50,415 nt of DNA from Candidatus Delongbacteria bacterium (GTDB lineage Bacteria; UBA4055): positions 1 through 50,415 of the forward strand of contig SLFX01000034.1 of the NCBI GenBank assembly GCA_007124045.1, given 5' to 3'. Shown in pieces: positions 2,475 through 21,717 of this stretch. Below the pieces are notes generated by a model. The model saw only the letters and a list, made by a program, of their open reading frames with translations, had not been told where the DNA came from and searched no databases. A program made the position numbers and the translations under genes. How positions within the stretch are numbered: the stretch's first letter is position 1; the number at the start of each line of letters is the position of its first letter.

Positions 2475-2477
2475 ATT

Positions 2478-4088
2478 ATGGAAACCGTCAAAATAAAAAT
2501 AAACGACAAAGAATTCAGCGTTAAGAAAGGGACAACGGTTCTCAAAGCCGCGACCGATGCCGGATTTTACATTCCCGGTCTCTGCGCCCATCCGGACCTC
2601 AGGCCGGAAAGTTCCTGCAGATTATGCGTGGTACAGATAGAGGGTCAGAGAGGTTATCCCGTATCATGTTCAACGGAAGTGTCGGAAGGAATGAGGGTCA
2701 AAACTGATACTGATGAGATCAGAGAACTGCGGAAAGGAATATTAGAACTACTTCTACTCCAGCATCCTTCGGCCTGCCTGATGTGCGAAAGAGACGCCGT
2801 CTGCCCCGCGACCGATATTGACATGCACGAGGTTCTTTTTACGGACAGGTGCGTGAGCTGTTTCAAGAACAACGCCTGCGAACTTCAGAAAGTGGTGGAT
2901 CATATTGGCCTTAAACAGATAGAACTTGATGCAAAAAGAGCCGAATTTGAAGTAGTCACGGACAACCCGATCTTTGATATTGACTACAATCTGTGCGTGC
3001 TCTGCGGAAGATGCATCAGGGTCTGTTCGGAGCTTATGGACATAGGTGTCGTATCGTATACTCAAAGGGGCAACAGAACTGTGGTGAGCACTCCGCTGGG
3101 CAGAAAGATGAAGGATTCGGGATGTAAATACTGCGGCGCGTGCGTTCAGGTCTGCCCTACCGGAAGCCTTGTTTTCAAGGCGAACAAGTTCACCGGAGTG
3201 TCAAATGATGACCTGCCTGTCGCCTGTGTAAACGCGTGCCCTGCCGGAATTGATGTTCCGCGCTTTATTTCCCTTATGAAAAAAGACAAAAATGATGAGG
3301 CTTTCGGCGTTCTGTGCGAAGGCTCCCCCTTCCCGGCGACACTCGGCAGGATCTGCACCGCGCCCTGCGAAAAAGACTGCTGGAGAAATGAGCTTAACGA
3401 CCCGATCGCTATAAGAATTCTGGAAAGATTCCTTTCCGAGAAGCATTATGCTCCCGTTTCAAAAAGCGGCATTGCAAAAACCGGAAAAAAGATCGCCGTT
3501 GAAGGATCCGGCCCCGGAGCTCTTACCGCAGCATATTTTCTGGCGCTGAAAGGTCATGATGTTACGGTTTTTGCGGAAAATAGCCAGGCGGGCGGTTTTT
3601 TGAGAACCGGTTTTTCAGCCACCGACCTTCCCGCAGATATCGTTGACAGAGAGATCGCATCTATCATATCGCTCGGTGTGCTGATCAAGACCGGAGAGGC
3701 TTTAAAAACAGACGGAATTGTACGATCCGGTTTTGATGCGGCCGTCCTGACAGAATATTCAGTACACGAAGTTAAACCGCCGGTCTTTAGATTGGCCGAT
3801 GCTGACGGTAAAGATATTCATGTAATAGATGCCGTGGGCGGCGCTAAAAAAGCGGCGGACGCTGTTGACAAATACCTCGGCGGCACAGTCGAAGTTAAAG
3901 ATGAAACTGTAATATCCGCCGATGATTTCAAACTCGGAATGGAAAAAGGTTTCGCGGACAGAAAAAAAGAGATACAAGACGATGTTACAGATACAAAAGA
4001 AGCACTGTATGAGGCTTCGAGATGCTTAAGATGCGACCTCAGGCACAAGATTTCCAAGGTTAAACTACCCGGAGAAGATCATGAATAA
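2478..4088 (+). CDS. Fusion of a NuoG/HydA-N-terminus-like FeS domain with a GltD/NfnB-like N-terminal FeS plus FAD domain; the NAD(P)H domain is missing
   Basis: 536 aa. It has a 2Fe-2S motif (CAHPD...CRLC...C), HPSACLMCERDAVC, CVLCGRCIRVC and CKYCGACVQVCP. Next come GltD-type CVNACPAGIDVPRFI...CTAPCEKDC and the dinucleotide fold GKKIAVEGSGPGALTAAYFLALKGHDVTVF. The protein then runs quickly to the GltD C-terminal helix (IDAVGGAKKAADAVDKYL) without a second GxGxxA Rossmann motif. No H-cluster or molybdopterin motifs are present. Confidence 0.8.
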   Translation: METVKIKINDKEFSVKKGTTVLKAATDAGFYIPGLCAHPDLRPESSCRLCVVQIEGQRGYPVSCSTEVSEGMRVKTDTDEIRELRKGILELLLLQHPSACLMCERDAVCPATDIDMHEVLFTDRCVSCFKNNACELQKVVDHIGLKQIELDAKRAEFEVVTDNPIFDIDYNLCVLCGRCIRVCSELMDIGVVSYTQRGNRTVVSTPLGRKMKDSGCKYCGACVQVCPTGSLVFKANKFTGVSNDDLPVACVNACPAGIDVPRFISLMKKDKNDEAFGVLCEGSPFPATLGRICTAPCEKDCWRNELNDPIAIRILERFLSEKHYAPVSKSGIAKTGKKIAVEGSGPGALTAAYFLALKGHDVTVFAENSQAGGFLRTGFSATDLPADIVDREIASIISLGVLIKTGEALKTDGIVRSGFDAAVLTEYSVHEVKPPVFRLADADGKDIHVIDAVGGAKKAADAVDKYLGGTVEVKDETVISADDFKLGMEKGFADRKKEIQDDVTDTKEALYEASRCLRCDLRHKISKVKLPGEDHE

Positions 4089-4935
4089 AATACTTAAAAA
4101 AGAAATTCTGACTGATAAGATCCACATGTTCGAGGTTGAAGCTCCCCAGATGGCAAAAAAGGCGAGAGCCGGGCAGTTCATTATTCTCAAAATATCGGAT
4201 AAAGCAGAAAGGATCCCTCTCACAATAGCCGATTACGACAGGGAAAGAGGAACCATTACGATAGTTTTCATGGAGGTGGGTAAAAGCAGTACAGAACTTG
4301 CGACACTTAATGAAGGTGACTATATCGAATGTTTCGCGGGCCCTCTGGGTAAACCGACCGAGGATGAAAATTACGGAACCGTTATCTGTGTCGGAGGAGG
4401 TTTTGCCATAGCCCCTATTCACGCAATAGCCAAAGCTATGAAACAGGCGGGCAACAAAGTTATAACGATTATTGGAGCAAGAACAAAGCATCTTCTCTTT
4501 TGGGAAGATAAAATCAGGGCGGTTAGCGATGAGGTGACTATCGTTACAGATGACGGGTCTTACGGCCGCAAAGCTCTTGTGACCGAACCTTTAAAGGAAC
4601 TGCTCACAGAAAGAAGCGATGTGAAGCTTGTTGTTGCAGTCGGTCCTGTTATGATGATGAAATTCTGTTCGCTTACAACAAAACCTTTCGATATTAAAAC
4701 CATGGTCAGCCTTAACCCGATCATGATAGACGGCACCGGAATGTGCGGATGCTGCAGGGTCTCGGTGGGTGGAAGAACAAGATTCGCTTGTGTTGACGGA
4801 CCGGATTTCGACGGTCACGAAGTTGACTGGGATGTCCTTCAGTTAAGACAGACGGCTTACATCAAAGAAGAAAAAACTTCGATGGACAGATATATGTCGG
4901 AAGTAAACAAAGACGGAAGCAGGGGAGATATATAA
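4081..4935 (+). CDS. nfnA: NfnA: NADH-dependent reduced ferredoxin:NADP+ oxidoreductase small subunit (PyrK-like FAD/[2Fe-2S])
   Basis: 284 aa. The N-terminus MNKILKKEILTDKIHMFEVEAPQMAKKARAGQF...ERIPLTIADYD and the C-terminal GTGMCGCCRV...FACVDGPDFDGHEVDW motif are typical of NfnA/sulfide dehydrogenase beta-type proteins. It overlaps the upstream gene by 8 nt. Confidence 0.88.
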   Translation: MNKILKKEILTDKIHMFEVEAPQMAKKARAGQFIILKISDKAERIPLTIADYDRERGTITIVFMEVGKSSTELATLNEGDYIECFAGPLGKPTEDENYGTVICVGGGFAIAPIHAIAKAMKQAGNKVITIIGARTKHLLFWEDKIRAVSDEVTIVTDDGSYGRKALVTEPLKELLTERSDVKLVVAVGPVMMMKFCSLTTKPFDIKTMVSLNPIMIDGTGMCGCCRVSVGGRTRFACVDGPDFDGHEVDWDVLQLRQTAYIKEEKTSMDRYMSEVNKDGSRGDI

Positions 4936-6380
4936 TGGCAGGTTTAAAAACAGCTAAGTCCGTTTCTATGAGAAATCAGGAACCGGCAGAAAGAAAAAAG
5001 AATTTTGAGGAAGTAGCACTTGGTTATTCCGAAGAAGAAGCACTGACGGAATCTAAGCGATGTGTGCATTTTGCTCCCAAGCTGCTCGATGACGGGCGAA
5101 CCATACTTTGCTGCCCCGAAAGACCTTGCACAAAAGGATGCCCTGTAGGAGTTGACATACCCGACTTTATAAAGGCCGTCAGGGACGGAGAGATGCAGAA
5201 GGCTGTGGATATACTTAAAGCAAAGAACAGCCTCCCGGGAGTTTGCGGAAGGGTTTGTCCTCAGGAATCGCAATGTCAGGCCGAATGTGTGGTAAAGGAC
5301 GCAGGAGATCCTGTAGAAATAGGCAGACTTGAAAGATATGTTGCCGATTGGGAACTCGGTCAGAGGAAAAAAAGCCCGCTGAAGGATCTTAAAATTACTC
5401 CGACAGGAAAAAAGGTCGCCGTAGTCGGTTCAGGACCCGCAGGACTGACAGTTGCAGGTGATCTAGCAAAAAATGGTCATAAAGTGGTAATGTACGAAGC
5501 TCTGCATGTCGCCGGCGGTGTACTGATGTACGGCATCCCCGAGTTCAGACTTCCCAAAGATGTTGTCATGTCCGAAGTGGAATATGTAAGATCTCTCGGT
5601 GTTGAAATAAAGCTCGATCATGTGGTGGGAAAGATTATCACAGCCGACGAACTGCTCGAAAGCGGTTACGATGCCGTATTCCTCGGCCCGGGTGCCGGAG
5701 CTCCTATGTTTCTCAACATCGAGGGTGAGAACCTCAACGGGATATTTTCGGCGAACGAATTTCTTACAAGGGTCAATTTGATGAAATCATATCTGTTCCC
5801 CGATTACGATACTCCGGTGCAGAAATCCAGGGTCGTCGCAGTAATTGGCGCGGGAAATGTGGCTATGGATGCCACCAGATGCGCACTCAGGATCGGGGCC
5901 GAACAGGTTCATATTATTTACAGAAGATCAATGGAAGAGGTTCCCGCAAGGCACGAGGAGGTTGAACATGCACTCGAAGAAGGAGTAGTTTTTAACATAC
6001 TTACCAATCCGATAAAATTCATTGGCGATGAAAAAGGAAATGTGACCGAAATGATTTGTCAGAAGATGGAACTGGGCGAACCGGATCAGAGCGGAAGAAG
6101 AAGGCCTTTCCCGATCAAAGATTCTGAATTCAGTATAAAAATAGATGCCGCGATCATAGCCCTGGGAACATATCCTAATCCAGTCATACCAGAAACGACT
6201 TCAGAGCTCGAACTGACAAGATGGGGTACCATAAAAACTGACGAAAATACCGGTAGAACCAGCAGAAAAGGCATTTGGTGCGGAGGAGATATGGCAACAG
6301 GAGCAGCAACCGTTATCAGTGCGATGGGTGCAGGAAAAAGGGCAGCTAAGGACATGGACGAATATCTGAAGAATAACTAG
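4935..6380 (+). CDS. nfnB: NfnB: GltD-like large subunit (2x[4Fe-4S], FAD, NADPH)
   Basis: 481 aa. It has CPVGVDIPDFI...CGRVCPQESQCQAEC, GKKVAVVGSGPAGLT, a second Rossmann motif VAVIGAGNVAMD, and a C-terminal VISAMGAGKRAAKDMDEYL. TAATG overlap with nfnA. Confidence 0.9.
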   Translation: MAGLKTAKSVSMRNQEPAERKKNFEEVALGYSEEEALTESKRCVHFAPKLLDDGRTILCCPERPCTKGCPVGVDIPDFIKAVRDGEMQKAVDILKAKNSLPGVCGRVCPQESQCQAECVVKDAGDPVEIGRLERYVADWELGQRKKSPLKDLKITPTGKKVAVVGSGPAGLTVAGDLAKNGHKVVMYEALHVAGGVLMYGIPEFRLPKDVVMSEVEYVRSLGVEIKLDHVVGKIITADELLESGYDAVFLGPGAGAPMFLNIEGENLNGIFSANEFLTRVNLMKSYLFPDYDTPVQKSRVVAVIGAGNVAMDATRCALRIGAEQVHIIYRRSMEEVPARHEEVEHALEEGVVFNILTNPIKFIGDEKGNVTEMICQKMELGEPDQSGRRRPFPIKDSEFSIKIDAAIIALGTYPNPVIPETTSELELTRWGTIKTDENTGRTSRKGIWCGGDMATGAATVISAMGAGKRAAKDMDEYLKNN

Positions 6381-6496
6381 ATATTCTTAGAACCCGGCTT
6401 ATGATCCCATATTTTAGTTTTATTTGCTTTTATTTACCGGTATATTGATTTATATTGTTATGAACTAACAGGTCTGATCTAATGCCGGAGGATAAA

Positions 6497-7786
6497 ATGG
6501 GAACAGATTCATACAATCCTTTCAGAACCGCTCAGAAACAATTTGACAGAGCAGCCATTATCCTGAATCTTGATAGCGCAAGCAAAGATCTTCTGCGAAT
6601 ACCCATGAAAGAATTTCATTTCAGTATACCTGTCCGGATGGATGACGGGTCGAAAAAGATCTTCAGAGGCTACAGGATCATGCACAACAACGCAAGAGGC
6701 GCAGCCAAGGGTGGAATAAGGTTCCACCGGCACGAATCTGTCGATTCGTTAAGGGCTCTTTCCATGCTGATGAGCTGGAAGACTGCAGTGGCTGACCTGC
6801 CTCTGGGAGGAGCATACGGCGGAGTGGAATGCGACCCGAGAGACCTTTCCGAAAATGAACAGGAACAGATATGTAGAGGCTATGTCAGACAGAATTTTAA
6901 TAATATGGGTCCTGAAATCGATGTACCTGCACCTGATCTTATGACCAATGCCATGCACATGCTCTGGATGCTCGATGAGTACGAAACTATGACAGGAAAA
7001 AGAACACCCGGTTTTATTACGGGTAAGCCCGTAGAAATGGGGGGCTCGCTCGGTAAAAAAGAAGCTACCGGTTACGGGGTAATGCTCTGTGTCCGTGAAG
7101 CTTTGAAGGAACTCAGTATCAGTCCGTCAAAGACCTCAGCAAGTTTTCAGGGATTCGGTAATGTAGCACAGAACGCAATAGACCTGTATCAGAAAATGGG
7201 CGGAAAAATCGAATGCATTTCGTGCCTGGACAGAAAAGAAATGAAAGAGATATCCTATTCCAAAGCTGGAGGAGTTATACCTGATGAATTAAGAAAGGTT
7301 ACCGATCCTTTCGGAGGGATAGACAAAAAAAAGGCGGAGGATCTCGGCTACGAGGCAGAGTATAACGACGCGTGGATGAAAAAAGAAGTGGATATTCTTG
7401 TCCCGTGCGCCATAGAAAATCTTATAACTGAAGCAAACTATTCTTCCATACCAGAATCTGTCAAAATTATTGCGGAAGGGGCAAACAGTCCCATCAACCC
7501 GAAGGCGGAAGAAATTCTCGAAAAACAAAATAAGATAAAAATAATACCTGACATACTTGCAAATTCGGGCGGAGTAATATGCTCCTACTTCGAACAGGTG
7601 CAGTCGAACATGAATTATTACTGGGACAAGAACGAGGTTTTCGCAAAACTAGATCAGAAAATAACATCAGCTTATGTATCTGTAAGCGATTTTGCTGTTA
7701 AAAACGGGATCAGTATGCGGGAATCCGCATTTATCATAGCTGCGGAAAGAGTTGCTGATGCCTGCAGAGAAAGAGGTTGGGTATGA
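6497..7786 (+). CDS. Glutamate dehydrogenase-family (ELFV) protein with Tyr in place of the catalytic Lys
   Basis: Family motifs present: AAKGGIRFH, SWKTAV, DVPAPDL, FQGFGNVAQ, EGANSPINP and PDILANSGGVICSYFEQVQS. The active-site glycine-rich motif reads LPLGGAYGGVECDP, with codon TAC at 6815-6817. The start is set at ATG 6497 because GGAGG lies at 6487-6491; the ORF track starts at ATG 6482. Confidence 0.85.
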   Translation: MGTDSYNPFRTAQKQFDRAAIILNLDSASKDLLRIPMKEFHFSIPVRMDDGSKKIFRGYRIMHNNARGAAKGGIRFHRHESVDSLRALSMLMSWKTAVADLPLGGAYGGVECDPRDLSENEQEQICRGYVRQNFNNMGPEIDVPAPDLMTNAMHMLWMLDEYETMTGKRTPGFITGKPVEMGGSLGKKEATGYGVMLCVREALKELSISPSKTSASFQGFGNVAQNAIDLYQKMGGKIECISCLDRKEMKEISYSKAGGVIPDELRKVTDPFGGIDKKKAEDLGYEAEYNDAWMKKEVDILVPCAIENLITEANYSSIPESVKIIAEGANSPINPKAEEILEKQNKIKIIPDILANSGGVICSYFEQVQSNMNYYWDKNEVFAKLDQKITSAYVSVSDFAVKNGISMRESAFIIAAERVADACRERGWV

Positions 7787-9519
7787 AAGAATTCGACTTT
7801 CTCTCTTCGGTGGGCGATAACAGGAAAAACGATTCTCCTCCTGTAAAACTTGTAGGAACCGGAGAACCGGGAGGAAAAGCTAAGGGGCTTCTGAATGCTT
7901 TTGATCTCGTCACAGAACTTAACAAAAAAGGTGATTTTCCTTCTGTGACTGTTGAAATACCCGGTTTTATTGTGGTTCAGACAGGCGTTTTTGATCTTTT
8001 TATGAGAATGAATAATTTGTACGAAACTGCTTACAGCGACGAAGATGATGACAGGATAGCATATAAATTCCAAAAAGCTGATCTGCCCTTTGAAATACTT
8101 AAAGATTTAAGGGAAATGATCATAAACATAAATTCTCCGGTCGCAGTAAGATCATCGGGGCTTTTGGAAGATGCAAAATATGAACCGTTCGCAGGCATAT
8201 ACGCCACAAAAATGCTTCCTAACAACCAAACTGACCCTGATGAAAGATGCAGGAAACTTTTTGAAGCTGTAAAACTCGTCTATGCCTCCACATTTTTTAA
8301 AGCACCCAAAAATTATATGAAATCTACAGGATATCAGATCCGGGATGAAAAAATGGCGGTTATCGTTCAGGAAGTACTCGGAAAAAAACACGGTGAAAGT
8401 TTTTATCCTGACATTTCGGGTGTCGCAAAATCGTTCAACTTTTACCCTATGGGTAGATCAAAGCCTAAAGACGGAGTCGTAAGTCTTGCTGTGGGATTAG
8501 GTAAAACCATAGTTGACGGCGGAGTAACTTGGACTTATTCGCCCCAGGATCCAGAACAGTCTCCCCCGTTCGGATCCGTTGACGATATGCTGAAAAACAC
8601 TCAGACAAGGTTTTGGAATATAAAACTGTCCGAACCTGAAGAATTCGATCCTCTGTGCGAAACAGAATTTATGACAGAGTCGGAAATATCTGAAGCCGAT
8701 AAGGATAAATCGCTCAGTATAAGCGCTTCCACGCTTAATGAATCAGGAAGAGTTTCTCCAGGAACAGGTTCCGACGGCCCCAGAATAATCAATTTTGCAC
8801 CGGTTTTAAAGCTTGAACTCCTTCCTCTGAACGATCTTGTAAAAGAGATTCTAAATTTATGCTCAAGAAAATTTGATACCCCTGTCGAGATCGAGTTCGC
8901 TCTGACCTGTGAAGGTGAAGGATATGATGTTTCCGCAAGGTTCGGTTTCCTTCAGGTGAGGCCTATGGTTGTTTCCGACGCGGATATTACTGTTACAGAT
9001 AATGAGTACGATGATGAAAATAATCTTATATCTTCCGAATTCGTTCTGGGAAACGGAAGTTTTTCGGACATAAAAGACATAATTTATGTAAAACCTGATA
9101 CATTTGAGGCCAGGAACACGCAAAAGATCGCTCTTGAAATTGCAAAGTATAATGAAAAACTTACTATCGAAAAAAGAAAATTCCTTCTCATAGGATTCGG
9201 CAGATGGGGAAGCTCGGACAGTTGGCTGGGTATTCCTGTCAACTGGGGGCAGATCTCGAATGTCCACACTATTGTCGAGGCCGGACTTCCCAACATGAAT
9301 GTCGAGCTGAGTCAGGGTTCGCATTTTTTCCATAACATGACAAGTTTCGGGGTAAATTATTTCTCCGTTCCCGCATATTACGAAAAAATGATCAGTTGGG
9401 ATATATTAAAAGATCAGAAAGTATCATCAGAATCAGAGAATGTTATTCATATAAGTTTAAATAAACCTATGCTCGTCAAAATTGACGGAAAAACCGGAAG
9501 AGGGTATATAAAGCTTTAA
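7783..9519 (+). CDS. Orphan PPDK_N-type ATP-grasp protein, minimal core paralog (ATP-grasp plus conserved C-terminal G[ST]HFF module; no PEP/pyruvate TIM barrel)
   Basis: Motifs: GGKAKGL, PVAVRSSGLLEDAKYEPFAGIYAT, MAVIVQEV, VGLGKTIVDG, PVEIEFA...FLQVRP. These are followed by LLIGFGRWGSSDSWLGIPV and SQGSHFFHN. ATG 7783 overlaps the GDH-like stop (ATGA) and AAGAGG lies 6 nt upstream. The track start is TTG 7777. Confidence 0.85.
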   Translation: MKEFDFLSSVGDNRKNDSPPVKLVGTGEPGGKAKGLLNAFDLVTELNKKGDFPSVTVEIPGFIVVQTGVFDLFMRMNNLYETAYSDEDDDRIAYKFQKADLPFEILKDLREMIININSPVAVRSSGLLEDAKYEPFAGIYATKMLPNNQTDPDERCRKLFEAVKLVYASTFFKAPKNYMKSTGYQIRDEKMAVIVQEVLGKKHGESFYPDISGVAKSFNFYPMGRSKPKDGVVSLAVGLGKTIVDGGVTWTYSPQDPEQSPPFGSVDDMLKNTQTRFWNIKLSEPEEFDPLCETEFMTESEISEADKDKSLSISASTLNESGRVSPGTGSDGPRIINFAPVLKLELLPLNDLVKEILNLCSRKFDTPVEIEFALTCEGEGYDVSARFGFLQVRPMVVSDADITVTDNEYDDENNLISSEFVLGNGSFSDIKDIIYVKPDTFEARNTQKIALEIAKYNEKLTIEKRKFLLIGFGRWGSSDSWLGIPVNWGQISNVHTIVEAGLPNMNVELSQGSHFFHNMTSFGVNYFSVPAYYEKMISWDILKDQKVSSESENVIHISLNKPMLVKIDGKTGRGYIKL

Positions 9520-9539
9520 TTTTAAGAAGAAATTTTTAA

Positions 9540-12500
9540 ATGAAGAAAAAAGATTCGGTCGATAAGATCATAAGGGATCTCAGAGAAAGGGCTAAGGAGA
9601 TAAAATGTCTTTATCAGGTCCAGGAGGTTTTGAGCGATCAGACCTTAAAATCAGATGAGCTCTGCAAAAAAATAGTAAAACTTATACCTCCGGGTTTTCA
9701 GTATCCCGATGTTTGTGCATCAAAAATAGTTCTGGGAAACAAAAAATACACCGATAAAAAATTCGATGAAACCGAATGGGAACTCGGGGCGGATATTGAA
9801 ATCAGAGGCGAAAAATCAGGACGGATATGCGTTTTTTATACGGAAGAAAGGCCTTTGGAGGATATTGGTCCCTTTCTTAAAGAGGAAAGAAAACTTCTTA
9901 ACTCAATTGCTGACCAGATGTCAATGCAGCTTCTTCACAACCAGCTTAAAACTGTGTTTGAGGAAGGAAAACTCCAGAGCACGGAAAAGAAAAGTGAATG
10001 GTGGATCATACTCGATCTGCTAAAAAGAACAGATCCGAGACTCTTGGTTAATATTGCGCAGAAAATGCTTAATTATCTCTGTCTGAACGCCGTATCGGAA
10101 GCAGAAAGCTTTATTGAAGAGTTCAATCCTTCCTTTAAAAAAAAGACAGAGCTTTTTAAGGATAACAATTTCCCGATGTCCGTTATAGAAACAAGCGACA
10201 TTTTTAACAAGAGCAACCATGTTTTTGATATCGCTTCCAGAAATCTCAGCGAAAACGAAATTTTGGATATAATTCAAAAATGGATCAAAGAAGACAGATC
10301 GAACTTCATGGTCAACATCCTGGAAAATACAGGATCGTCACTGCCTGACATCTCCAACGCCATCGAAAGATATCACCATTTATCCAGCCAGGGACTAGAA
10401 TTATCGGTACCTAGAGCCAAGAGTTTCAGGGTCGCTCTGACAAGGCGGGTTCTTACAGACCAGCCCGGATTCGTTAAGATCGCAAAAGAAAATGTGAAGG
10501 TTGACGATTTCAACGGTCTGATGAAAGTTATCATTCATCCTGCACGCAGCCACGGTAAGGTTGGAGGAAAAAGCAGCGGTCTTTTTCTTGCCGAAAAAAT
10601 TCTGAAAAATTCCGGACCGGACAGTAAATCTCTAAAAAATATTAAATTCCCCAAATCATGGTACATTACATCAGACGGTCTTTTAGAATTCATAAAGTAC
10701 AACAGCCTTGAAGATATAGTTGAACAGAAATATAAGGACATCGGTCAGGTACGCCAGGAATACCCTTATGTTGTTCAAGTATTTAAAAATTCAACATTCC
10801 CACCAGATATCGTAAAAGGTCTTACTCTGGCACTGGATGATCTTGGAGACAGACCTCTTATCGTCAGAAGTTCAAGTCTTTTGGAGGACAGATTCGGCAC
10901 AAGTTTCGCCGGAAAATATAAAAGTCTTTTCATTGCTAACATTGGAAGCCGTGAGGAAAGGCTTGAAAGCCTTACAGGCGCGATCGCCGAGATCTATGCT
11001 TCGACATTCGGACCCGAACCGATAGAATACCGAAATGAGCACGGCCTGATAGATTACCTTGAAGAGATGGGAATAATCATTCAGCAAGTCGTGGGAAACA
11101 GGATCGGAGATTATTTTCTGCCGTCTTTTGCAGGTGTGGCCTTTGGAAACAATGAATACAAATGGTCTCCCAGACTGGATAAAGAAGACGGGCTTATAAG
11201 GGTTGTTCCGGGGCTAGGTACCAGAGCGGTCGATCGGATCTCTGACGACTATCCTGTTCTTATATCGCCGGGAAAACCGGATTTAAGTGTTAATGCAAGC
11301 ATTGAAGAAAAAATCAAATATTCACCAAAAAAAGTGGATCTTATAAATCTGAAGTCAGGCAAATTTGATACAGTGGATCTTTCGGACCTTCTCTTTGATC
11401 ACGGCAATAACTTTCCCTGGATAGAGAACATGGTCTCTGTAGTTGAAGAAAAGTATCTGAGACCGCCAAAAAAAATCGGACATGACTATAAAAACAATTA
11501 TCATCTTGCAACATTTGAGGGTCTGAAATCAGGATCAGTATTTCTCTCACAGATAAAATTGCTCCTCGGAATATTCAGGGAAAAGTATAGCGGACCAGTA
11601 GATATTGAATTCGCTTCTGACGGTAAAGATCTGTATCTTCTCCAATGCCGTCCGCAAAGTTTTTCAAAGGACAGCCGTCCCGCCGTAATACCTGAAGACA
11701 GTTTTGAGAATGATATTCTTTTTTCCGCAGAAAAACATGTTCCTAACGGAACTGTTCAGGATATAACTCATATAGTCTATGTTGATCCTGATAAATACCC
11801 GTCTCTTTCCACTTTCGAAGAACTTTATGAAACGGGCAGAATTATCAGCAAACTCAATAAAATACTTCCCAAAAGACAATTTATCCTGATAGGTCCGGGA
11901 AGATGGGGCAGCAGAGGAGACATAAAACTCGGAGTCAGTGTTACATATTCTGACATTAACAACACCGCAATGCTGATAGAGATTGCAAAAAAACGAAAAG
12001 AATTCATTCCCGATCTCTCTTTCGGCACACATTTTTTTCAGGATCTTGTAGAGGCTGATATAAAATATTTGCCGCTGTATCCTGATTCAGATACAATATT
12101 GAATGAGAAGTTTCTAAAAAACTCTAAGAACATACTTCCGTCTCTTGTACCAGATCTGTCTGCCGAGCTTCAAAATACCGTAAGAGTTATAGACATTCCT
12201 TCTGAATCAGAAGGGAAAGAGCTTCATGTATATATGAATTCTGAAATCCAGAAAGCAGTGGGTATAATATCGGAATCTTCAACAATATCTTCTTTTGACC
12301 CTGAAGAAACAGAAAACAGAAAAGTTCTTAACAGTGATTTCCACTGGAAGTGGAGATTATCTTATGTGAAAGAAATTGCTTCTTCGATTGACGGAGAAAA
12401 GTTCGGGGTAAAAGCGTTCTATATTTTCGGGAGTGTAAAAAACGCTACCGCAGGACCCGCGAGCGACATAGATATACTTATACATTTTTGCGGAAACACC

Positions 12501-12713
12501 AGTCAGAAGAATGATCTTGAAATGTGGCTGAACGGTTGGGACAGATCTCTCGTCATGATAAATTATTTAAGTACCGGAAATAAGACCGATAATATTCTGG
12601 ATATTCACTACATTACAGATAAAGATATAAAGAATCGAACTTCTTACGCTGTTAAGATCGGTGCTCACACTGACCCGGCAAGACCGTTGGAGATAAAAAG
12701 ACCTGCTAAATAA
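9540..12713 (+). CDS. Multidomain paralog: sensor-like N-terminus, PPDK_N ATP-grasp, G[ST]HFF module and a C-terminal Pol-beta-type nucleotidyltransferase
   Basis: 1057 aa. Motifs: GGKSSGL, PLIVRSSSLLEDRFGTSFAGKYKS, MGIIIQQV, PVDIEFA...LLQCRP, ILIGPGRWGSRGD and SFGTHFFQD (His codon 12030-12032). The C-terminal YIFGSVKNATAGPASDIDILIH matches the hG[GS]-x(9-13)-DhD nucleotidyltransferase signature (DID at 12465-12473). Confidence 0.85.
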   Translation: MKKKDSVDKIIRDLRERAKEIKCLYQVQEVLSDQTLKSDELCKKIVKLIPPGFQYPDVCASKIVLGNKKYTDKKFDETEWELGADIEIRGEKSGRICVFYTEERPLEDIGPFLKEERKLLNSIADQMSMQLLHNQLKTVFEEGKLQSTEKKSEWWIILDLLKRTDPRLLVNIAQKMLNYLCLNAVSEAESFIEEFNPSFKKKTELFKDNNFPMSVIETSDIFNKSNHVFDIASRNLSENEILDIIQKWIKEDRSNFMVNILENTGSSLPDISNAIERYHHLSSQGLELSVPRAKSFRVALTRRVLTDQPGFVKIAKENVKVDDFNGLMKVIIHPARSHGKVGGKSSGLFLAEKILKNSGPDSKSLKNIKFPKSWYITSDGLLEFIKYNSLEDIVEQKYKDIGQVRQEYPYVVQVFKNSTFPPDIVKGLTLALDDLGDRPLIVRSSSLLEDRFGTSFAGKYKSLFIANIGSREERLESLTGAIAEIYASTFGPEPIEYRNEHGLIDYLEEMGIIIQQVVGNRIGDYFLPSFAGVAFGNNEYKWSPRLDKEDGLIRVVPGLGTRAVDRISDDYPVLISPGKPDLSVNASIEEKIKYSPKKVDLINLKSGKFDTVDLSDLLFDHGNNFPWIENMVSVVEEKYLRPPKKIGHDYKNNYHLATFEGLKSGSVFLSQIKLLLGIFREKYSGPVDIEFASDGKDLYLLQCRPQSFSKDSRPAVIPEDSFENDILFSAEKHVPNGTVQDITHIVYVDPDKYPSLSTFEELYETGRIISKLNKILPKRQFILIGPGRWGSRGDIKLGVSVTYSDINNTAMLIEIAKKRKEFIPDLSFGTHFFQDLVEADIKYLPLYPDSDTILNEKFLKNSKNILPSLVPDLSAELQNTVRVIDIPSESEGKELHVYMNSEIQKAVGIISESSTISSFDPEETENRKVLNSDFHWKWRLSYVKEIASSIDGEKFGVKAFYIFGSVKNATAGPASDIDILIHFCGNTSQKNDLEMWLNGWDRSLVMINYLSTGNKTDNILDIHYITDKDIKNRTSYAVKIGAHTDPARPLEIKRPAK

Positions 12714-13554
12714 GATATCTTTCAGCGGTGGTCGGATCGTCAATATCAAATACAACCGCTGCAAGCTCTTTGCCGTCATGGGCGGCTGAAAACATTTCTG
12801 TTCTGCCGATACGGTCTCTCCACGAACCCGTTATGCGTGCCGATTCGTGAATGTGACCGTGTAGGGTAAGAAACGGCTGCTTTTCTTCTATGAATTCTCT
12901 CACCGCAATACTGCCGACATGAACATCAAGCGGAGCAGAATCATAAAATTTTCCGTCAAGCGCCGCCCTGTCCAAAGCCGTTTTATAAGGGGGTGTATGA
13001 AAAAGCATAATATGATCCGAAACATCTTCCTCCGAAAACATTTTCTCCAGATCTTTTTTTATTGTGGTATTTCTTGCAACCTCCGGCTCCTGATCGTATG
13101 TCCTTATTCCCTCCTCAGGAGAAATGCATCCGGGATCTACATATCTTGAAACATCATATTTTTCCCAGTCTTTCAGAAGGAAAGGGGTAGGCGGTATGTA
13201 TGAATATCCGAAGACTGTTCTTCCTTTAAAAACGATCTTTTTATTATGAGAATAGCTCCAGAGTCCTTTTTTCTCCGCCATAATAATCTTATTTTCATCT
13301 CTTTTACTGTCATCGTTACCAAGAATAATAAATACAGCCGGATATTTTTCCCGCATTGATCTTTTTAAAACCAGAAAATTTGATATTACAGTTTCTTCAA
13401 TAAAATCGACAGGTGATTCCCCTCTAAAACCCGAAGGCAGAATATCCCCGCCTATAAAAACCGCGTCAGGTTTTTCCAAAAAAATAAATTCGAGCAGTTT
13501 TTTATATCTGTGTGTGCTTCCGTGCAGATCTGATACGAACAGAGATTTTAGCAT
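12706..13554 (-). CDS. Calcineurin-like metallophosphoesterase
   Basis: 282 aa. Ordered motifs: SDLHG, GGDILP, LGNDD, LFHTPP and HGHIHES. Its 3' end overlaps the convergent 1057-aa gene by 8 nt. Confidence 0.85.
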   Translation of the reverse strand: MLKSLFVSDLHGSTHRYKKLLEFIFLEKPDAVFIGGDILPSGFRGESPVDFIEETVISNFLVLKRSMREKYPAVFIILGNDDSKRDENKIIMAEKKGLWSYSHNKKIVFKGRTVFGYSYIPPTPFLLKDWEKYDVSRYVDPGCISPEEGIRTYDQEPEVARNTTIKKDLEKMFSEEDVSDHIMLFHTPPYKTALDRAALDGKFYDSAPLDVHVGSIAVREFIEEKQPFLTLHGHIHESARITGSWRDRIGRTEMFSAAHDGKELAAVVFDIDDPTTAERYLI

Positions 13555-13663
13555 GCTCCAAATATAAACAGAACTTATCGGTAATGCAAAATAATTGTAG
13601 AATTTTGTATCTTGATTTTTTTGTGCTTTTTTGTTAATTATAACCTAAAACCGGAGATTGTCC

Positions 13664-16630
13664 ATGCAAATTTCTGAACCGGACACTGACTTTAGAAGAT
13701 CTTTTCCCGAAGAACCATTCGAAAATCTTATGATGAAAAGAATATCAGAAGTTCTTTTGATCTGCAACGAATATGACGCATTTATGCTCGAAGAGGATGG
13801 TAGGATCGAGGAAAAAGTATTCAAAGAATACTCCTCTCTGCACCTGAGGTTTTCACCGCATTTCAACAGAGCATCATCTCTTAAGGATGCTCTCGAACTG
13901 ATGAAGAAAAAGAATTTTGATCTTATTATAACCCTCCATAACTCAGGTTCGCTTGATGCTTTCGGTACAAATTTAAAAATTAAAAGAGCATATCCCGATA
14001 AGACGACCGTTGTTCTGACCCCTTTCTCGAGAAATATCATGACCCTGAAAGATATTGAGAAAATAAATCCATCATCGGACTATGTTTTCTCATGGCTGGG
14101 CGATACGAGCATACTTGTAGCTATCATTAAGCTGATCGAAGATAAAATGAATGTTGATGATGATATTTCATCAGCCGGTGTACAGGTTATACTTTTAATT
14201 GAAGATTCGATCAGGTACTATTCAAGCTACCTTCCCGTACTTTACCAAACCATATTCGATCAGACTCTGCATGTAATGAACGAAAATCTGAACGATCATC
14301 AGAAAAACTTAAGAATGAGAGGAAGGCCGAAAATACTGCATGTAACAAATTACGAAGAAGCGGTAAGGCTTTACAAAAAATACAGAACCAATATTCTCGG
14401 AATCATATCAGATGTAGAATTCCCTAAAGGCAAAACCATCAACAAACATGCCGGAATAGATCTTTGCAGAGAGATAAGGAAAGACAACCCTTACATACCG
14501 TTTTTAATACAGTCCTCGATAAACGACAACCAGATCAAAGCGGAGCGTAGCGGAGCGGCTTTTATAAATAAGCAGTCAGAAAATATTTTAAATGACATCT
14601 CTTCATTTGTCAGTGAGAATTTCGGTTTCGGAGAATTCAGTTTTAAAAATACTGCAAACGGAAAAATAATCAAAAAGGCTTCAAACCTGAAAGAGCTTCA
14701 AAAAGGTATTGAGACTGTCCCTTTAAAATCCCTTCTGATGCATGCGGAAAGAAATGATTTTTCCAAATGGCTTAGAGCAAGAACCCTTTTTAATCTGGCC
14801 TCTGTATTAAAACCAAAAAGAATAAATGATTTTTCAGAACCTGCTGAGGTAAGAAATTATATGTCCGGCGTTATCGAAAATTACAGAAGATCAAGCTCTA
14901 TCGGAACCATAGTAAACTTTTCAGGGACCGGATATGATGAGCTGTCGGGCTTTTCCAGGATCGGTAACGGCTCTATTGGTGGAAAGGCGAGAGGACTGGC
15001 ATTTATGAACAGGGTCCTAAAAACAAAACGCAAGAGCTATTTTTATTACAATATCGTCATCTCTATCCCCCAAACTGTAGTTCTTGCTACTGATATATTC
15101 ACGGAATTTATGGATAGCAACGGTCTCTACCCCGTAGCATTTTCAGATTCGGAAAACCATATTCTGCTCGATGAGTTTTTAAAAGCTTCTCTTCCTGAAT
15201 ATGTTATGGAGGAGTTAAAGGTTTTTCTTACAGGCAATAAAAAGCCTCTGGCCGTCAGATCATCCAGTTTGCTGGAAGACTCATACTATCAGCCTTTTGC
15301 AGGTATATATTCCACCTACATGATCTCAAACAACAGCAGGGATTTTGATAAAAGGCTTTCAGAACTTGTCCAGGCCGTAAAATGCGTTTATGCATCCACT
15401 TATTTTAAGGGAAGCAAAAAATATCTAAAAGCTACCAGAAATGTAATCGAAGAAGAAAAAATGGCCGTTGTGATCCAGAACATTTCCGGTTCGAGGCACG
15501 GTCATACATGGTATCCGACCTTTTCCGGTGTCGCAAGATCTGTAAACAACTATCCTGTAGGCTATGAGAAACATAATATCAGCATAGCTAATATCGCGGC
15601 AGGTCTCGGTAAAACCATTGTTGACGGGGAAGTGTCTTTAAGATTCTCACCTTCTTTTCCGAATAATATCATACAGATGACATCAGCGGATTATGCACTA
15701 AAATATACTCAGAAACATTTTTATGCACTCAGCCTCAAGACTTCCTCTTTCAAAGCTGTAGAAAACGACAGTGCCAACCTTATTAAAAGAGATATTCATG
15801 AAGGTGTAAAAGAAGGTGCTTTTAATGCTGTCGTTTCAACATACGATCATCAAAGCGGCATTATAAGAGATACTGACGACTTTCCAGGACCTAAAATAGT
15901 AAGTTTCGGAAATATCCTGAAGAGAGAGACTTTCCCCCTGAGCAGGATACTTCTTGACCTGCTTTCTAATCTGGAAAAAAGTATGAACAACCCGGTTGAA
16001 ATGGAGTTTGCTGTCAATATTGACCCGGAGGGGCTTAACCACTCTTTCGATCTCCTTCAGGCAAGACCTGTGTCTTCAAATTTCGAATCCTCAAATATTG
16101 ATATATCAGAACTTGACAACGATCAGGCAATAATCAAATCATTTTCATCACTCGGAAACGGTCTAATAAACAACATCAGAGACATTGTTTACATCGTACC
16201 TGAAAAATTCGATCCTGCGAAGACAAGAGATATCGCCTCAACGATAAAGACACTGAACAAAAAATTCATGGATAAGAACAGGAATTATATTCTCATAGGA
16301 CCGGGAAGATGGGGAACTTCAGATCCGTGGCTCGGAATACCCGTAAGGTGGGAAGATGTTTCACAGGCTTCGGTAATAATTGAGGCCGGGCAAAAAGATT
16401 TTGTTGTTCAGCAAAGTCAGGGTTCGCATTTCTTCCATAATATCACGACTTTTGGTGTTTTTTACTTTTCTATCAACCCGTTTTTGAAAGACGGTTTTTA
16501 TGACCTGGATTTTCTCGCACAATTTAAGCCTGTATTTGAGGATGATTTTATCCGTCATATATGCTTTAAAAAGCCCCTTACGGTCAAAACAGACGGCAGA
16601 TTTGGACACGGTATAGTCCTAAAACCATAA
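13664..16630 (+). CDS. Pseudo-receiver plus receiver plus PPDK_N ATP-grasp plus G[ST]HFF module protein (paralog C)
   Basis: The N-terminal domain has LLICNEYD/DLIITLHN (degenerate receiver). The second domain has ILLIEDS, ILGIISDVEFP (Asp codon 14411-14413), PFLIQSS and FINKQS. The core has GGKARGL, PLAVRSSSLLEDSYYQPFAGIYST, MAVVIQN, GLGKTIVDG, PVEMEFA, ILIGPGRWGTSDPWLGIPV and SQGSHFFHN. The start is set at ATG 13664 with GGAG at 13653-13656; the track start is TTG 13658. Confidence 0.85.
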   Translation: MQISEPDTDFRRSFPEEPFENLMMKRISEVLLICNEYDAFMLEEDGRIEEKVFKEYSSLHLRFSPHFNRASSLKDALELMKKKNFDLIITLHNSGSLDAFGTNLKIKRAYPDKTTVVLTPFSRNIMTLKDIEKINPSSDYVFSWLGDTSILVAIIKLIEDKMNVDDDISSAGVQVILLIEDSIRYYSSYLPVLYQTIFDQTLHVMNENLNDHQKNLRMRGRPKILHVTNYEEAVRLYKKYRTNILGIISDVEFPKGKTINKHAGIDLCREIRKDNPYIPFLIQSSINDNQIKAERSGAAFINKQSENILNDISSFVSENFGFGEFSFKNTANGKIIKKASNLKELQKGIETVPLKSLLMHAERNDFSKWLRARTLFNLASVLKPKRINDFSEPAEVRNYMSGVIENYRRSSSIGTIVNFSGTGYDELSGFSRIGNGSIGGKARGLAFMNRVLKTKRKSYFYYNIVISIPQTVVLATDIFTEFMDSNGLYPVAFSDSENHILLDEFLKASLPEYVMEELKVFLTGNKKPLAVRSSSLLEDSYYQPFAGIYSTYMISNNSRDFDKRLSELVQAVKCVYASTYFKGSKKYLKATRNVIEEEKMAVVIQNISGSRHGHTWYPTFSGVARSVNNYPVGYEKHNISIANIAAGLGKTIVDGEVSLRFSPSFPNNIIQMTSADYALKYTQKHFYALSLKTSSFKAVENDSANLIKRDIHEGVKEGAFNAVVSTYDHQSGIIRDTDDFPGPKIVSFGNILKRETFPLSRILLDLLSNLEKSMNNPVEMEFAVNIDPEGLNHSFDLLQARPVSSNFESSNIDISELDNDQAIIKSFSSLGNGLINNIRDIVYIVPEKFDPAKTRDIASTIKTLNKKFMDKNRNYILIGPGRWGTSDPWLGIPVRWEDVSQASVIIEAGQKDFVVQQSQGSHFFHNITTFGVFYFSINPFLKDGFYDLDFLAQFKPVFEDDFIRHICFKKPLTVKTDGRFGHGIVLKP

Positions 16631-16724
16631 ATTTTTAATTTTTTTCATCAAAAACTACCGTGATTTTTACATTTTTTGAGCAAAAACGGGGTTCTCAGAT
16701 AAAAAAAATAGTCGAAAAAATTTA

Positions 16725-16753
16725 TTGACATTAAATTGCGGTGTCTATATATT
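16725..16753 (+). promoter_or_regulatory. Near-consensus sigma70 promoter for gdhA
   Basis: TTGACA (16725-16730), a 17-nt spacer, then TATATT (16748-16753). A tandem TTGAATT TTGAATT (16752-16765) lies immediately at and after the -10 element. Confidence 0.6.
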
Positions 16754-16790
16754 GAATTTTGAATTGAAAAATGAAACAGACAAAAAAACA

Positions 16791-18182
16791 ATGGAGGCCG
16801 TCATGCCTAAACTCGCAAAGAAGTACATGGACATTCTGATCTCAAAGGATCCGAATCAGCCTGAGTTCCTTCAGGCTGCTCAAGAAGTGATTGATACTAT
16901 TATTCCGGTACTCGAAAAGCATCCGGAATATGTTGAAGCAAAGATCGTCGAAAGGATTATCGAGCCTGAAAGAGTGATACTTTTCAGAGTGCCCTGGGCC
17001 GATGACAAGGGAAAAGTACAGGTCAACAGAGGTTTCAGAATTGAATACAACAGTGCTCTCGGACCCTACAAGGGCGGAATGAGGTTCCATCCCAGCGTGA
17101 ATTTGAGTATTCTGAAATTTCTGGGATTCGAACAGATCTTCAAAAACTCCCTCACTACTCTGCCGATGGGCGGTGGAAAAGGCGGATCGGATTTTGACCC
17201 GAAAGGAAAATCTGATAACGAGGTAATGCATTTCTGCCAGAGTTTCATGAACGAACTTTACAGGCATATAGGTCCCAATACTGATGTACCTGCAGGTGAC
17301 ATCGGTGTAGGCGGCAGAGAGATCGGATTTATGTTCGGTCAGTACAAAAAGATCGTAAATGAGTTTACGGGAGTTTTTACCGGAAAAGGAAGGAACTGGG
17401 GCGGATCACTGATTCGACCCGAAGCTACAGGATACGGAGAGGTCTATTTTGCACAGAATATGCTCGCCGAGAAAAAAGATTCTATTAAAGGAAAGACCGT
17501 CGCTGTAAGCGGATCGGGCAATGTATGTCAGTACGCTATTCAGAAAGTCAATGAACTGGGCGGAAAATGTATTTCAATGTCTGATTCAACGGGAACAATA
17601 ATCGACCTGAACGGCATCGATGACAAGAAGTGGAAATATCTGATGGAGCTCAAGAACATTAAGAGAGGAAGGGTTAAAGAATATGCCGTAAAATTTAAAG
17701 GTGCAAAAGTAAAATATTACGAAGGAAAAAGTGTTTGGGATGTAATTAGGGACCAGAAAATAAAGGTTGATATCGCTTTACCGTCCGCTACACAGAATGA
17801 GATCGATGCCAGCCATGCTAAAGCATTGGTGAAATACGGGTGTAAAGTGGTCTCGGAAGGAGCAAATATGCCTTCTCTTCCCGAAGCACAGGATATATTC
17901 ATAAAAAACAGAGTCCTTTACGGTCCCGCAAAAGCTGCCAATGCAGGCGGTGTTGCGACTTCAGGACTTGAAATGAGCCAGAACTCTTTGAGAATGTCGT
18001 GGACAAGAGAAGAGGTTGACGGTCATTTGAAAAGGATCATGAAAGACATTCATGACAACTCCATGGCTGCTGCACTCAAATATGCTCCGGAGAAAGACGG
18101 ATACATAAACTATATGGCAGGTGCGAACATTGCAGGATTTATCAAAGTTGCCGATGCAATGATGGATCAGGGAGTCGTTTAA
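16791..18182 (+). CDS. gdhA: Canonical NAD(P)-dependent glutamate dehydrogenase (E. coli/Clostridium GdhA type)
   Basis: Motifs: [49 protein letters not shown] (catalytic Lys codon 17178-17180), [24 protein letters not shown] and SEGANMPS. The track start TTG 16725 coincides with the -35 box, so ATG 16791 is preferred (ATG 16803 is also possible). Confidence 0.92.
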
Positions 18183-18202
18183 TCCAATTTTTTTATTTTA
18201 TC

Positions 18203-18229
18203 AAAAAGGCGGTGCACCGCCTTTTTTTA
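18203..18229 (+). terminator. Rho-independent terminator after gdhA
   Basis: AAAAA GGCGG tgca CCGCC TTTTTTT: a perfect GC-rich hairpin followed by a 7-T run, 20 nt after the stop. Confidence 0.85.
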
Positions 18230-18252
18230 TGCCAAAATTTTTTTTTTTTATC

Positions 18253-18280
18253 TTGATAAATATTATTTTAACCGTAAAAT
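18253..18280 (+). promoter_or_regulatory. Candidate sigma70 promoter for paralog D
   Basis: TTGATA (18253-18258), a 16-nt spacer, then TAAAAT (18275-18280). GGAGA Shine-Dalgarno lies before ATG 18306. Confidence 0.45.
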
Positions 18281-18305
18281 ACAAGTAATTAAACGGAGAA
18301 GTCTT

Positions 18306-21297: not shown

Positions 21298-21717
21298 ATG
21301 GAGGCCAGAATGAAATTATGCAGAGAATGCAAAAACGAAGTTTCAGAATCGGCGCAGATATGTCCAAAATGCGGGGCTCCCAAGCCGTCTCTGGAAAAAT
21401 GGGACGGTTACGGATTCGAGTATAAAAGCAGGCTCGGAATAATGGGTTTGCCTCTGATCCATGTTTCCTTCAAATATACTGCGAACAGAACGCCGGTAGT
21501 AGCGAAGGGGATTATTGCGGTAGGCCAGTTCGGGATCGGTGTTATAAACATATCGCAGTTCGGGATCGGCATTCTGAGCGCCGGTCAGTTCACGCTGGGT
21601 ATGTATGCCCTCGCGCAGTTCGGCTTTGCCTACTCCCTGATAGCTCAGTTCGGTCTCTACATCGAGTCCGGCTATGGACAGATGGTGTGGAAACTGGCTG
21701 AATTATTGGGCAGGTAA
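21298..21717 (+). CDS. Zinc-ribbon protein with a C-terminal hydrophobic QFG-repeat region
   Basis: 139 aa. CRECKN-x10-CPKCG zinc ribbon. It is followed by five repeats of about 10-11 aa (GQFGIGVI, SQFGIGIL, GQFTLGMY, AQFGFAYS, AQFGLYIE), visible as recurring cagttcgg in the DNA (about 21515-21670). The start is uncertain (ATG 21298 or 21310). Confidence 0.6.
   Translation: MEARMKLCRECKNEVSESAQICPKCGAPKPSLEKWDGYGFEYKSRLGIMGLPLIHVSFKYTANRTPVVAKGIIAVGQFGIGVINISQFGIGILSAGQFTLGMYALAQFGFAYSLIAQFGLYIESGYGQMVWKLAELLGR

Follow-up and report, generated by a model that had tools for sequence, protein, structure and literature searches.

The window analysed here is a stretch of 50,415 nucleotides (nt) from a Candidatus Delongbacteria bacterium (contig SLFX01000034.1), and the subject of this work is a long gene on its forward strand, which lies close to two glutamate dehydrogenase (GDH) genes and joins in a single polypeptide a sensor-type module, an ATP-grasp domain, a module with an invariant histidine and a nucleotidyltransferase. 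An open reading frame (ORF) of 1057 amino acids (aa) with an ATG start was found at 9540..12713 (+), as the original prediction had claimed, and all the peptides quoted from it were located in their places: KCLYQVQEVL at residues 22-31, LIPPGFQYPDVCASKIVL at residues 48-65, GRICVFYTEE at residues 94-103, GPFLKEERKLLNSIADQM at residues 110-127, FGTHFF at residues 828-833 and FGSVKNATAGPASDIDIL (FGS...SDIDIL) at residues 963-980. We take the product of the long ORF to be a real multi-domain signalling enzyme of ancient origin, with identifiable domains, intact catalytic motifs, wide conservation and a recurrent association with the same neighbours, both by synteny and by fusion. Its features, with the evidence used for each, are the following:

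9540..12713, + strand: whole ORF, a sensor/ATP-grasp/His-module/nucleotidyltransferase fusion of 1057 aa (Pfam, relatives, conservation)
9540..9989, + strand: reduced GAF-type sensor module, residues 1-150 (AlphaFold, Foldseek, profile search)
9990..10544, + strand: conserved all-helical region of no recognised family, residues 151-335 (AlphaFold model, alignment, no Pfam match)
10557..11693, + strand: PPDK_N ATP-grasp of the phosphoenolpyruvate (PEP) synthase/PPDK type, residues 340-718 (Pfam, motifs, BLASTP)
11694..12269, + strand: family-specific C-module, residues 719-910, with GPGRWGS at 785-791, SFGTHFF at 827-833 and the His831 codon at 12030-12032 (paralogue alignment)
12285..12332, + strand: low-confidence linker between the C-module and the nucleotidyltransferase, residues 916-931 (AlphaFold, predicted local distance difference test (pLDDT) <50)
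12333..12710, + strand: predicted minimal Pol-beta nucleotidyltransferase, residues 932-1057 (Pfam, Foldseek, profile alignment)
12429-12434, 12465-12473 and 12600-12602, + strand: nucleotidyltransferase catalytic codons of G964-S965, D976/D978 and D1021, respectively

Domains of the long protein

The central part of the protein is the easiest to recognise. PPDK_N (PF01326) matched residues 340-718 with an E-value of 8.1e-54 and 183.5 bits (cut-off 27), covering profile positions 3-321 of 328, and the ATP/Mg motifs were found at residues 342-344 (GGK), 442-450 (VRSSSLLED), 688-690 (DIE) and 701-705 (LQCRP), which BLASTP aligns with VRSSATAED, DIE and QAR of E. coli PpsA. No variation was found in these motifs (GGK, RSSxxxED..FAG, DxE, QxR) among the window's four paralogues or among 42 orthologues. 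The whole core of ATP-grasp plus G[ST]HFF is common to the three other paralogues (7777..9519, 13658..16630 and 18306..21287), in such a way that the description of the centre of the protein given by the original prediction holds. The NCBIfam matches of this region, which name PEP synthase, PigC/RedH and rifampicin phosphotransferase, are far sub-threshold (around 60 bits versus 600-1300), the best being TIGR01418 with 60.2 bits (cut-off 739.75), and the models of rifampicin phosphotransferase/PigC type NF041857 and NF052631 giving 32.1 versus 999 and 43.3 versus 1300 bits. Because of these scores the long protein is placed outside those three families. Only one marginal match to an ATP-grasp (5hv6, E-value 0.002) was obtained when the whole protein was compared with the PDB by phmmer. 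No Pfam match to the PEP/pyruvate-binding TIM-barrel domain (PF02896) was found, and the C-module directly precedes the linker and the nucleotidyltransferase. Of the label "dikinase" given previously to this protein, the ATP-grasp part is thus well founded, and the dikinase part is hypothetical, as neither a swivel nor a PEP/pyruvate-binding domain was detectable.

Directly after the ATP-grasp there is a module of around 190 residues, the C-module, common to all four paralogue lineages. The alignment of 27 diverse C-modules revealed an invariant Asn, GxGRxG, a Gly, a Glu, SxG[ST]HFF and a Tyr, with the Trp of GPGRWGS being nearly invariant, and the histidine of SxG[ST]HFF (His831) is invariant across the four lineages, from many phyla. 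This histidine is located 123-129 residues past LQxRP, versus 87 residues for His421 in E. coli PpsA, hence on the same side of the ATP-grasp and similarly far from it. The AlphaFold model of residues 712-1057 has a mean pLDDT of 83.5, with ten-residue blocks just past GPGRWGS and just before His831 that average around 50, a drop that would fit mobile catalytic loops. That His831 acts as a phospho-carrier, as implied by the name His-module, is a reasonable hypothesis.

With respect to the N-terminal part, no Pfam match was obtained at E<=1 for residues 1-150, nor was any obtained for residues 151-335. The AlphaFold model of residues 1-340 (mean pLDDT 71, and 79-88 across most of the first 100 residues) begins, over its first 150 residues, with two helices, one long and one short, then has a sheet of four strands and a second long helix, and continues with the all-helical region. 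When this model was compared with the PDB by Foldseek, nearly all the leading matches were GAF domains (4g3v, 4g3k, 3cit, 8jrc, PDE5/6 and CodY, with Aquifex Nlh2 and Nlh1, a Pseudomonas histidine kinase and NifA among the proteins matched), with probabilities around 1.0, target TM-scores of 0.5-0.6 and weak E-values, from 6e-3 to 0.1; the usual GAF domain has five or six strands, versus the four found here. With a profile of the module, 10,499 cluster representatives were recovered at E<=1e-3 from a set of 1.84 billion representative proteins, 8,426 of them at E<=1e-10, often with two to five copies in tandem per protein. A Pfam scan of 45 module-bearing proteins detected HATPase_c (18), PAS (17), HisKA (15), GAF (11), receiver (7), LuxR-type helix-turn-helix (HTH; 7), Ser/Thr kinase (3) and chemoreceptor signalling (2) domains. 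The module has the consensus ERxKELxCLY ... IPxxWQYPE ... GPFLKEERxLI, as noted for 9540-9989 and the proteins P0121-P0270, and relatives show partial Pfam matches to the last third of PF01590 (32.8 bits for P0122, cut-off 22.4).

Because of the GAF fold matches, the occurrence in signalling proteins and the partial GAF matches of its relatives, residues 1-150 are assigned, with the help of the predicted model, to a reduced GAF-type sensor module (mini-GAF) common in signal-transduction proteins. The original prediction had pointed to a module appended to PAS/histidine-kinase proteins, and it was right in this, the leading fold matches being nearly all to GAF and the module being found mostly in PAS/GAF histidine kinases. 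The domain searches that it proposed have thus named PPDK_N and NTP_transf_2 (see below), and the GAF type of the N-terminal module was assigned through the model and the profile. Residues C23 and C59 are invariant among the GDH-linked orthologues; as a general trait of the mini-GAF this Cys pair was rejected, the first Cys being conserved in less than 80% and the second in less than 50% of the wider family. The mini-GAF has no model of its own in the Pfam version used, and looks like an undescribed, very common sensor-domain family of histidine kinases.

At the C-terminus, NTP_transf_2 (PF01909) matched residues 953-990 with 30.9 bits (cut-off 21), and Polbeta (PF18765) matched exactly at its cut-off (26.9 versus 26.9 bits). 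The motif hG[GS]-X9-13-DhD is present as G964 and S965, ten residues, and D976-I-D978, with a third carboxylate, D1021, in the sequence LDIH. The aspartate codons had been placed at 12465-12473, which is exact (D976 GAC, I977, D978 GAT), and the spacing, given as FGS-x11-SDIDIL, has to be corrected to FGS-x9-SDIDIL, which is equivalent to GS-X10-DXD, a motif with a demonstrated catalytic role in MntA, a protein adenylyltransferase (PMC7641770). The alignment of orthologues shows no substitution at G964, S965, D976 or D1021 and a conservation of at least 90% at D978, and among 120 close relatives and 76 genome loci the DxD is present in 117 and 73, respectively. The family profile aligns the GS..DxD with the catalytic motifs of URT1, KNTase and AadA, so that degenerate or misaligned catalytic residues, considered as a possible objection, are excluded. 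The best Foldseek matches were MNT antitoxins (7ae9 and 7bxo; MntA), 2rff, HI0073, AadA, LinB and KNTase, with probabilities of 0.8-0.98 and E-values around 1e-2, and the pLDDT means of the ten-residue blocks of this domain range from 80 to 97. Therefore, as the original prediction proposed for the last 120 residues or so, and with agreement between Pfam and Foldseek, residues 932-1057 are by sequence a minimal Pol-beta nucleotidyltransferase with an intact catalytic motif. No family model of GlnE or GlnD appeared at E<=1 in Pfam or NCBIfam.

The resemblance to MntA, the antitoxin of type VII toxin-antitoxin systems, includes the same GS-X10-DXD motif and the same minimal fold, and raises the idea that the gene belongs to an MNT-type toxin-antitoxin or phage-defence element. 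For this there are weak matches to the NCBIfam model of MntA (NF047752, 22.9 bits) and to PDC-S09 of PADLOC, together with a weak match to PDC-S10 of a metallophosphoesterase encoded next to the long gene. The scores are, however, far under the cut-off (60 bits for MntA), and the PADLOC matches are generic, at the level of domains only. Moreover, whereas MntA is a free-standing protein of around 100-140 aa paired with a HEPN toxin, the domain described here is the C-terminal part of a 1057-aa protein, and no HEPN toxin gene was found among the neighbours of the long gene (ORFs of the window and clustered neighbours at the loci). The gene is chromosomal and has a stable synteny with GDH across many phyla, unlike mobile defence islands, and the defence reading, which was rejected on this context, is considered extremely improbable.

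Conservation of the fusion and of its GDH cassette

The 120 best database relatives align at full length with 55-94% identity (seven of them are around 1630 aa long and one 1202 aa), nearly all with PPDK_N and most also with nucleotidyltransferase Pfam domains, a conservation that chance is far from explaining. Around 70% of them belong to Delongbacteria, and the rest to KSB1, Calditrichota, Bacteroidota, Ignavibacteriota and Marinimicrobia. A genome survey with one genome per species yielded at least 595 pattern-matching stretches, the best 80 of which, used here as loci, carry full-length genes with 46-68% identity and add Acidobacteriota, Planctomycetota, Zixibacteria, Krumholzibacteriota, Eisenbacteria, Aminicenantes, Fermentibacteria and Cloacimonadota to the list. 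The fusion is thus conserved in hundreds of genomes from many phyla, with full-length orthologues at 46-72% identity, which excludes that it is unique to this genome. An assembly chimera, or a lineage-specific accident by which an ATP-grasp gene and a nucleotidyltransferase gene became joined, had been suspected at 12250-12400, and has now a negligible probability: the junction is spanned by the 120 relatives and by the 80 loci of independent assemblies, the junction residues W936, W938 and R939 are invariant among orthologues, and the composition profile showed no break at the suspected point. None of the solved structures matched in the PDB searches belongs to the long-protein family, the literature searches found no paper on it and databases name it only generically; in this respect the statement that no protein with this domain order has been characterised agrees with what was found in the PDB and the literature.

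The neighbours of the long gene are the following:

6482..7786, + strand: GDH-family gene, 434 aa, conserved first gene of the cassette, with a 4-nt overlap between its end and the start codon (ATG) of the short paralogue
7783..9519, + strand: short paralogue, 578 aa, with ATP-grasp and C-module only (the ORF list starts it at TTG 7777)
12706..13554, - strand: metallophosphoesterase, 282 aa (Pfam Metallophos), convergent, with a weak match to a phosphodiesterase family
13658..21287, + strand: second module, with two receiver-domain paralogues around a GdhA-type GDH
13658..16630, + strand: receiver-domain ATP-grasp paralogue, 990 aa
16725..18182, + strand: GdhA-type NADP-GDH (NCBIfam equivalog, 731 bits versus 536), which keeps GGGKGG
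18306..21287, + strand: second receiver-domain paralogue, 993 aa

The link to GDH pointed out in the original prediction is real and conserved across phyla, with a GDH gene lying upstream of the long gene at 69 of the 71 loci that could be evaluated. Of 76 loci, 52 have the short paralogue next to the long gene and another 6 (L043, L051, L072, L076, L079 and L037) have it fused to the long protein, and the relatives P0058 and P0064, of around 1630 aa, also consist of the short and the long proteins fused head to tail. This fusion is Rosetta-stone evidence, at the level of sequence, that the two adjacent gene products would act together, and since the genes are adjacent in most genomes and fused in some, the short and the long proteins probably form a paralogous heteromer. 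The metallophosphoesterase gene was found downstream in 42 of 68 loci, in 40 of them in convergent orientation, and in most of the loci that have it the layout is tight, with gaps of 0-20 nt; in the window, the two genes overlap by 8 nt at their 3' ends (12706-12713). The same order of four genes (GDH, short paralogue, long gene and metallophosphoesterase) was found in a Calditrichota genome. Receiver-type paralogues recur beside GdhA-type GDH genes in other genomes, and clustering of the neighbouring ORFs at the loci detected no conserved partner beyond GDH, the short paralogue and the metallophosphoesterase. A scan of 6300-13800 for promoters and terminators gave counts not above those of shuffled controls, so operon boundaries could not be drawn.

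The GDH of the cassette (6482..7786) has the sequence LPLGGAYGG, with a Tyr (TAC) at codon 112 (6815-6817) in the place of the catalytic Lys of GG[GAS]KGG. This Lys is kept in 65 of the 70 cassette-type GDH ORFs of other loci that have the motif, the exceptions including L033 (Asn), L059 and L069 (Ser) and L077 (Ala). To judge from this substitution, the cassette GDH of the window may have an impaired catalysis, or may serve as a regulatory subunit.

Comparison with known systems and proposed function

As the long protein has a mini-GAF and its paralogues have receiver domains, these proteins are regarded as signal transducers, whose minimal conserved unit is the ATP-grasp plus the C-module, the nucleotidyltransferase being an accessory of the long lineage. 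What we propose, with a confidence that falls a little short of even, is that the long protein is a metabolite-gated enzyme that modifies GDH, or a partner of GDH, by ATP-dependent phosphoryl or nucleotidyl transfer. In such a mechanism the mini-GAF would read a metabolite or redox signal, and this signal would gate an ATP-dependent group transfer in which the ATP-grasp would load a phosphoryl or pyrophosphoryl group onto His831 of the adjacent C-module, and the C-terminal domain would carry out the transfer of a nucleotidyl group (AMP). Acceptance of the group would fall to the GDH of the neighbouring gene, or to a partner attached to that GDH, the long protein would work with the short paralogue, made of ATP-grasp and His-module, encoded just upstream, and the metallophosphoesterase, as a candidate eraser, would remove the modification. 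MntA AMPylates a protein tyrosine. The phosphotyrosyl-AMP bond is of the phosphodiester kind, and a phosphodiesterase family model was weakly matched by the esterase. A precedent for the effect on the target is the AMPylation of mitochondrial GDH by SelO, which lowers GDH activity (PMC12375108).

Similar logics are known in nitrogen control. GlnE and GlnD use nucleotidyltransferase domains of the Pol-beta superfamily fused to sensor or regulatory domains, and there a nitrogen-assimilation enzyme is under reversible nucleotidylylation, as here a sensor protein bearing a nucleotidyltransferase is genomically tied to GDH. The previous assertion that the catalytic parts are unrelated to those of GlnD/GlnE was therefore too strong for the nucleotidyltransferase, which shares the superfamily with them, their domains being of other families within it. 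GlnE and GlnD differ in having no ATP-grasp and His-module, in carrying nucleotidyltransferases of another type than the minimal, MNT-type domain found here, which matches none of their models, and in removing the modification by a second domain of the same protein, whereas a separate metallophosphoesterase is proposed here, for a system known from its genes. Enzyme I-Ntr (PtsP) of the nitrogen PTS, a histidine-phosphotransfer enzyme with a GAF fused at its N-terminus, is connected with nitrogen status, and its combination of sensor and His-carrier is similar to that of the long protein; unlike it, PtsP works with PEP, has a canonical swivel as well as a TIM barrel and passes phosphate to NPr, and none of those parts was detectable here. 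SelO has in common with our proposal that the activity of GDH can be lowered by AMPylation, but it is a pseudokinase-fold AMPylase from a eukaryotic mitochondrial system, unrelated to any domain of the long protein, and the GDH site it modifies is in the antenna, which bacterial GDHs lack. As for PEP synthase, PPDK, rifampicin phosphotransferase and PigC, they share with the long protein a homologous ATP-grasp with the same ATP/Mg motifs, and PEP synthase and PPDK also a conserved His downstream of it; they differ from it in that the long protein has no detectable swivel or PEP/pyruvate- or rifampicin-binding domain, and in its added sensor and nucleotidyltransferase. The long protein falls outside all the families compared, with known catalytic folds in a new arrangement for what would be the covalent control of a nitrogen enzyme, and there is a real chance that the system is categorically new.

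Several points weigh against GDH modification. To our knowledge, all the characterised PPDK_N enzymes (PEP synthase, PPDK, glucan water dikinase, rifampicin phosphotransferase and PigC) act on a small molecule or a glucan, and none on a protein. The proposal is built from gene content and synteny, and gene adjacency fits equally well with the regulation of GDH and with a common pathway with GDH. The metallophosphoesterase is present in only around 62% of the evaluable loci, and the presumed target could be inactive in this organism, as its cassette GDH has a Tyr for the catalytic Lys. The identity of the C-module also counts here: no swivel (PF00391, GG.TSH motif) was matched in Pfam at E<=10 with 27 C-modules or at E<=1 with the whole protein; a C-module profile gave only chance matches against the PDB, such as longin domains with an E-value of 0.01; and the 50 Foldseek matches listed for the model of residues 712-1057 all fell on the nucleotidyltransferase, leaving the C-module unmatched. 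A canonical swivel identity was also unsupported by hhalign between 73 C-modules and 12 swivel domains (probability 0.3%, E-value 0.18), the latter being PEP-utilizers sequences of E. coli PpsA and PtsI and of ten plasmid-borne homologues. A conserved module with an invariant His, as originally described, is hence confirmed, and the name His-module goes beyond the similarity detected by Pfam, the PDB profile and hhalign.

Some of these points would fit better with a metabolic enzyme, in which the ATP-grasp and His-module would form a dikinase-like pair phosphorylating a metabolite of the glutamate/2-oxoglutarate pathway, the nucleotidyltransferase would tag or activate a small molecule, GDH would be a pathway neighbour and the sensors would merely tune the activity. 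The small-molecule substrates of the known PPDK_N enzymes, the names of the weak NCBIfam matches (PEP synthase, PigC/RedH and rifampicin phosphotransferase), the many close structural relatives of the nucleotidyltransferase that modify small molecules (AadA, LinB and KNTase) and the synteny with GDH, which fits a shared pathway as well as regulation, are consistent with it. However, there is no equivalent of the PEP/pyruvate TIM barrel or of a rifampicin-binding domain, the short paralogue being only ATP-grasp plus C-module, the N-terminal module and the receiver domains are of kinds usual in signal-transduction proteins, and no further pathway enzyme is conserved in the neighbourhood. We regard this explanation, the main rival, as unlikely, though one to be taken seriously. 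A regulation in cis, in which the nucleotidyltransferase would modify, or bind a nucleotide for, its own protein or the short partner and not GDH, for instance by an auto-AMPylation that switches the ATP-grasp, seems improbable to us. This would agree with the tethering of the domain by a linker that is flexible according to its pLDDT, with the three other paralogues without nucleotidyltransferase, which make of it an accessory to one branch, and with the general knowledge on HEPN/MNT pairs that a minimal nucleotidyltransferase as a rule depends on a partner, either a domain or a subunit. Against it, the catalytic residues of the nucleotidyltransferase are conserved as strongly as the rest of the protein and no obvious acceptor motif was identified that is specific to the long lineage; this reading is also compatible with a modification of GDH.

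GDH modification by the long protein can also be extended to the whole region, in a version that we find rather unlikely. The cassette would then be an unrecognised system for covalent modification of GDH, in which the ATP-grasp would autophosphorylate a His on a novel carrier and hand the group on either to GDH or to the receivers in the paralogues flanking the second GDH, with the MntA-like domain as a second writer and the metallophosphoesterase as eraser. The pair of ATP-grasp and His-carrier would be in that case, by analogy, a transmitter functionally comparable to a histidine kinase with an unrelated fold, an equivalence that we likewise see as rather unlikely.

GDH stands at the junction of carbon and nitrogen metabolism. 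For glutamine synthetase a modification cascade is textbook knowledge; for bacterial GDH, the literature searches brought up no post-translational control system dedicated to it. The cassette, present in hundreds of genomes including those of the FCB group, Acidobacteriota, Planctomycetota, Zixibacteria and Krumholzibacteriota, brings GDH together with ATP-grasp proteins that carry sensors, a domain of AMP-transferase type and a phosphoesterase, and constitutes a concrete candidate for such a system. It also exposes two domain families without an adequate Pfam model or PDB match, the His-module of the four paralogue lineages and the mini-GAF. If it is true that the ATP-grasp/His-module acts on proteins, the PEP-synthase/PPDK family would be extended to a new class of substrates.

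Other observations in the neighbourhood

The window ORFs that were scanned showed no histidine kinase. By eye, the paralogues of around 990 aa of the second module contain a second receiver-like region, with an acidic pair, an acceptor Asp, a Ser and a Lys (ILLVEDS ... GIITDV ... LIQSS ... FLYK). Directly past the second of these paralogues there is an ORF of 139 aa (21298..21717) with no match in Pfam, NCBIfam or PADLOC. At the locus of a Bacteroidota-like genome (L001, 9214-9844), a Gp49-family/HTH pair, toxin-antitoxin-like, is located between the short and the long genes, with no adjacent GDH. Finally, upstream of the cassette, at 591..6380 of the window, there are genes for flavin/iron-sulfur oxidoreductases, which are NuoF-like, NuoG/GltD-like, NfnA-like and NfnB/GltD-like, and similar genes were found near the cassette at five other loci (L018, L038, L055, L058 and L059), suggesting a pyridine-nucleotide/ferredoxin redox module associated with GDH.

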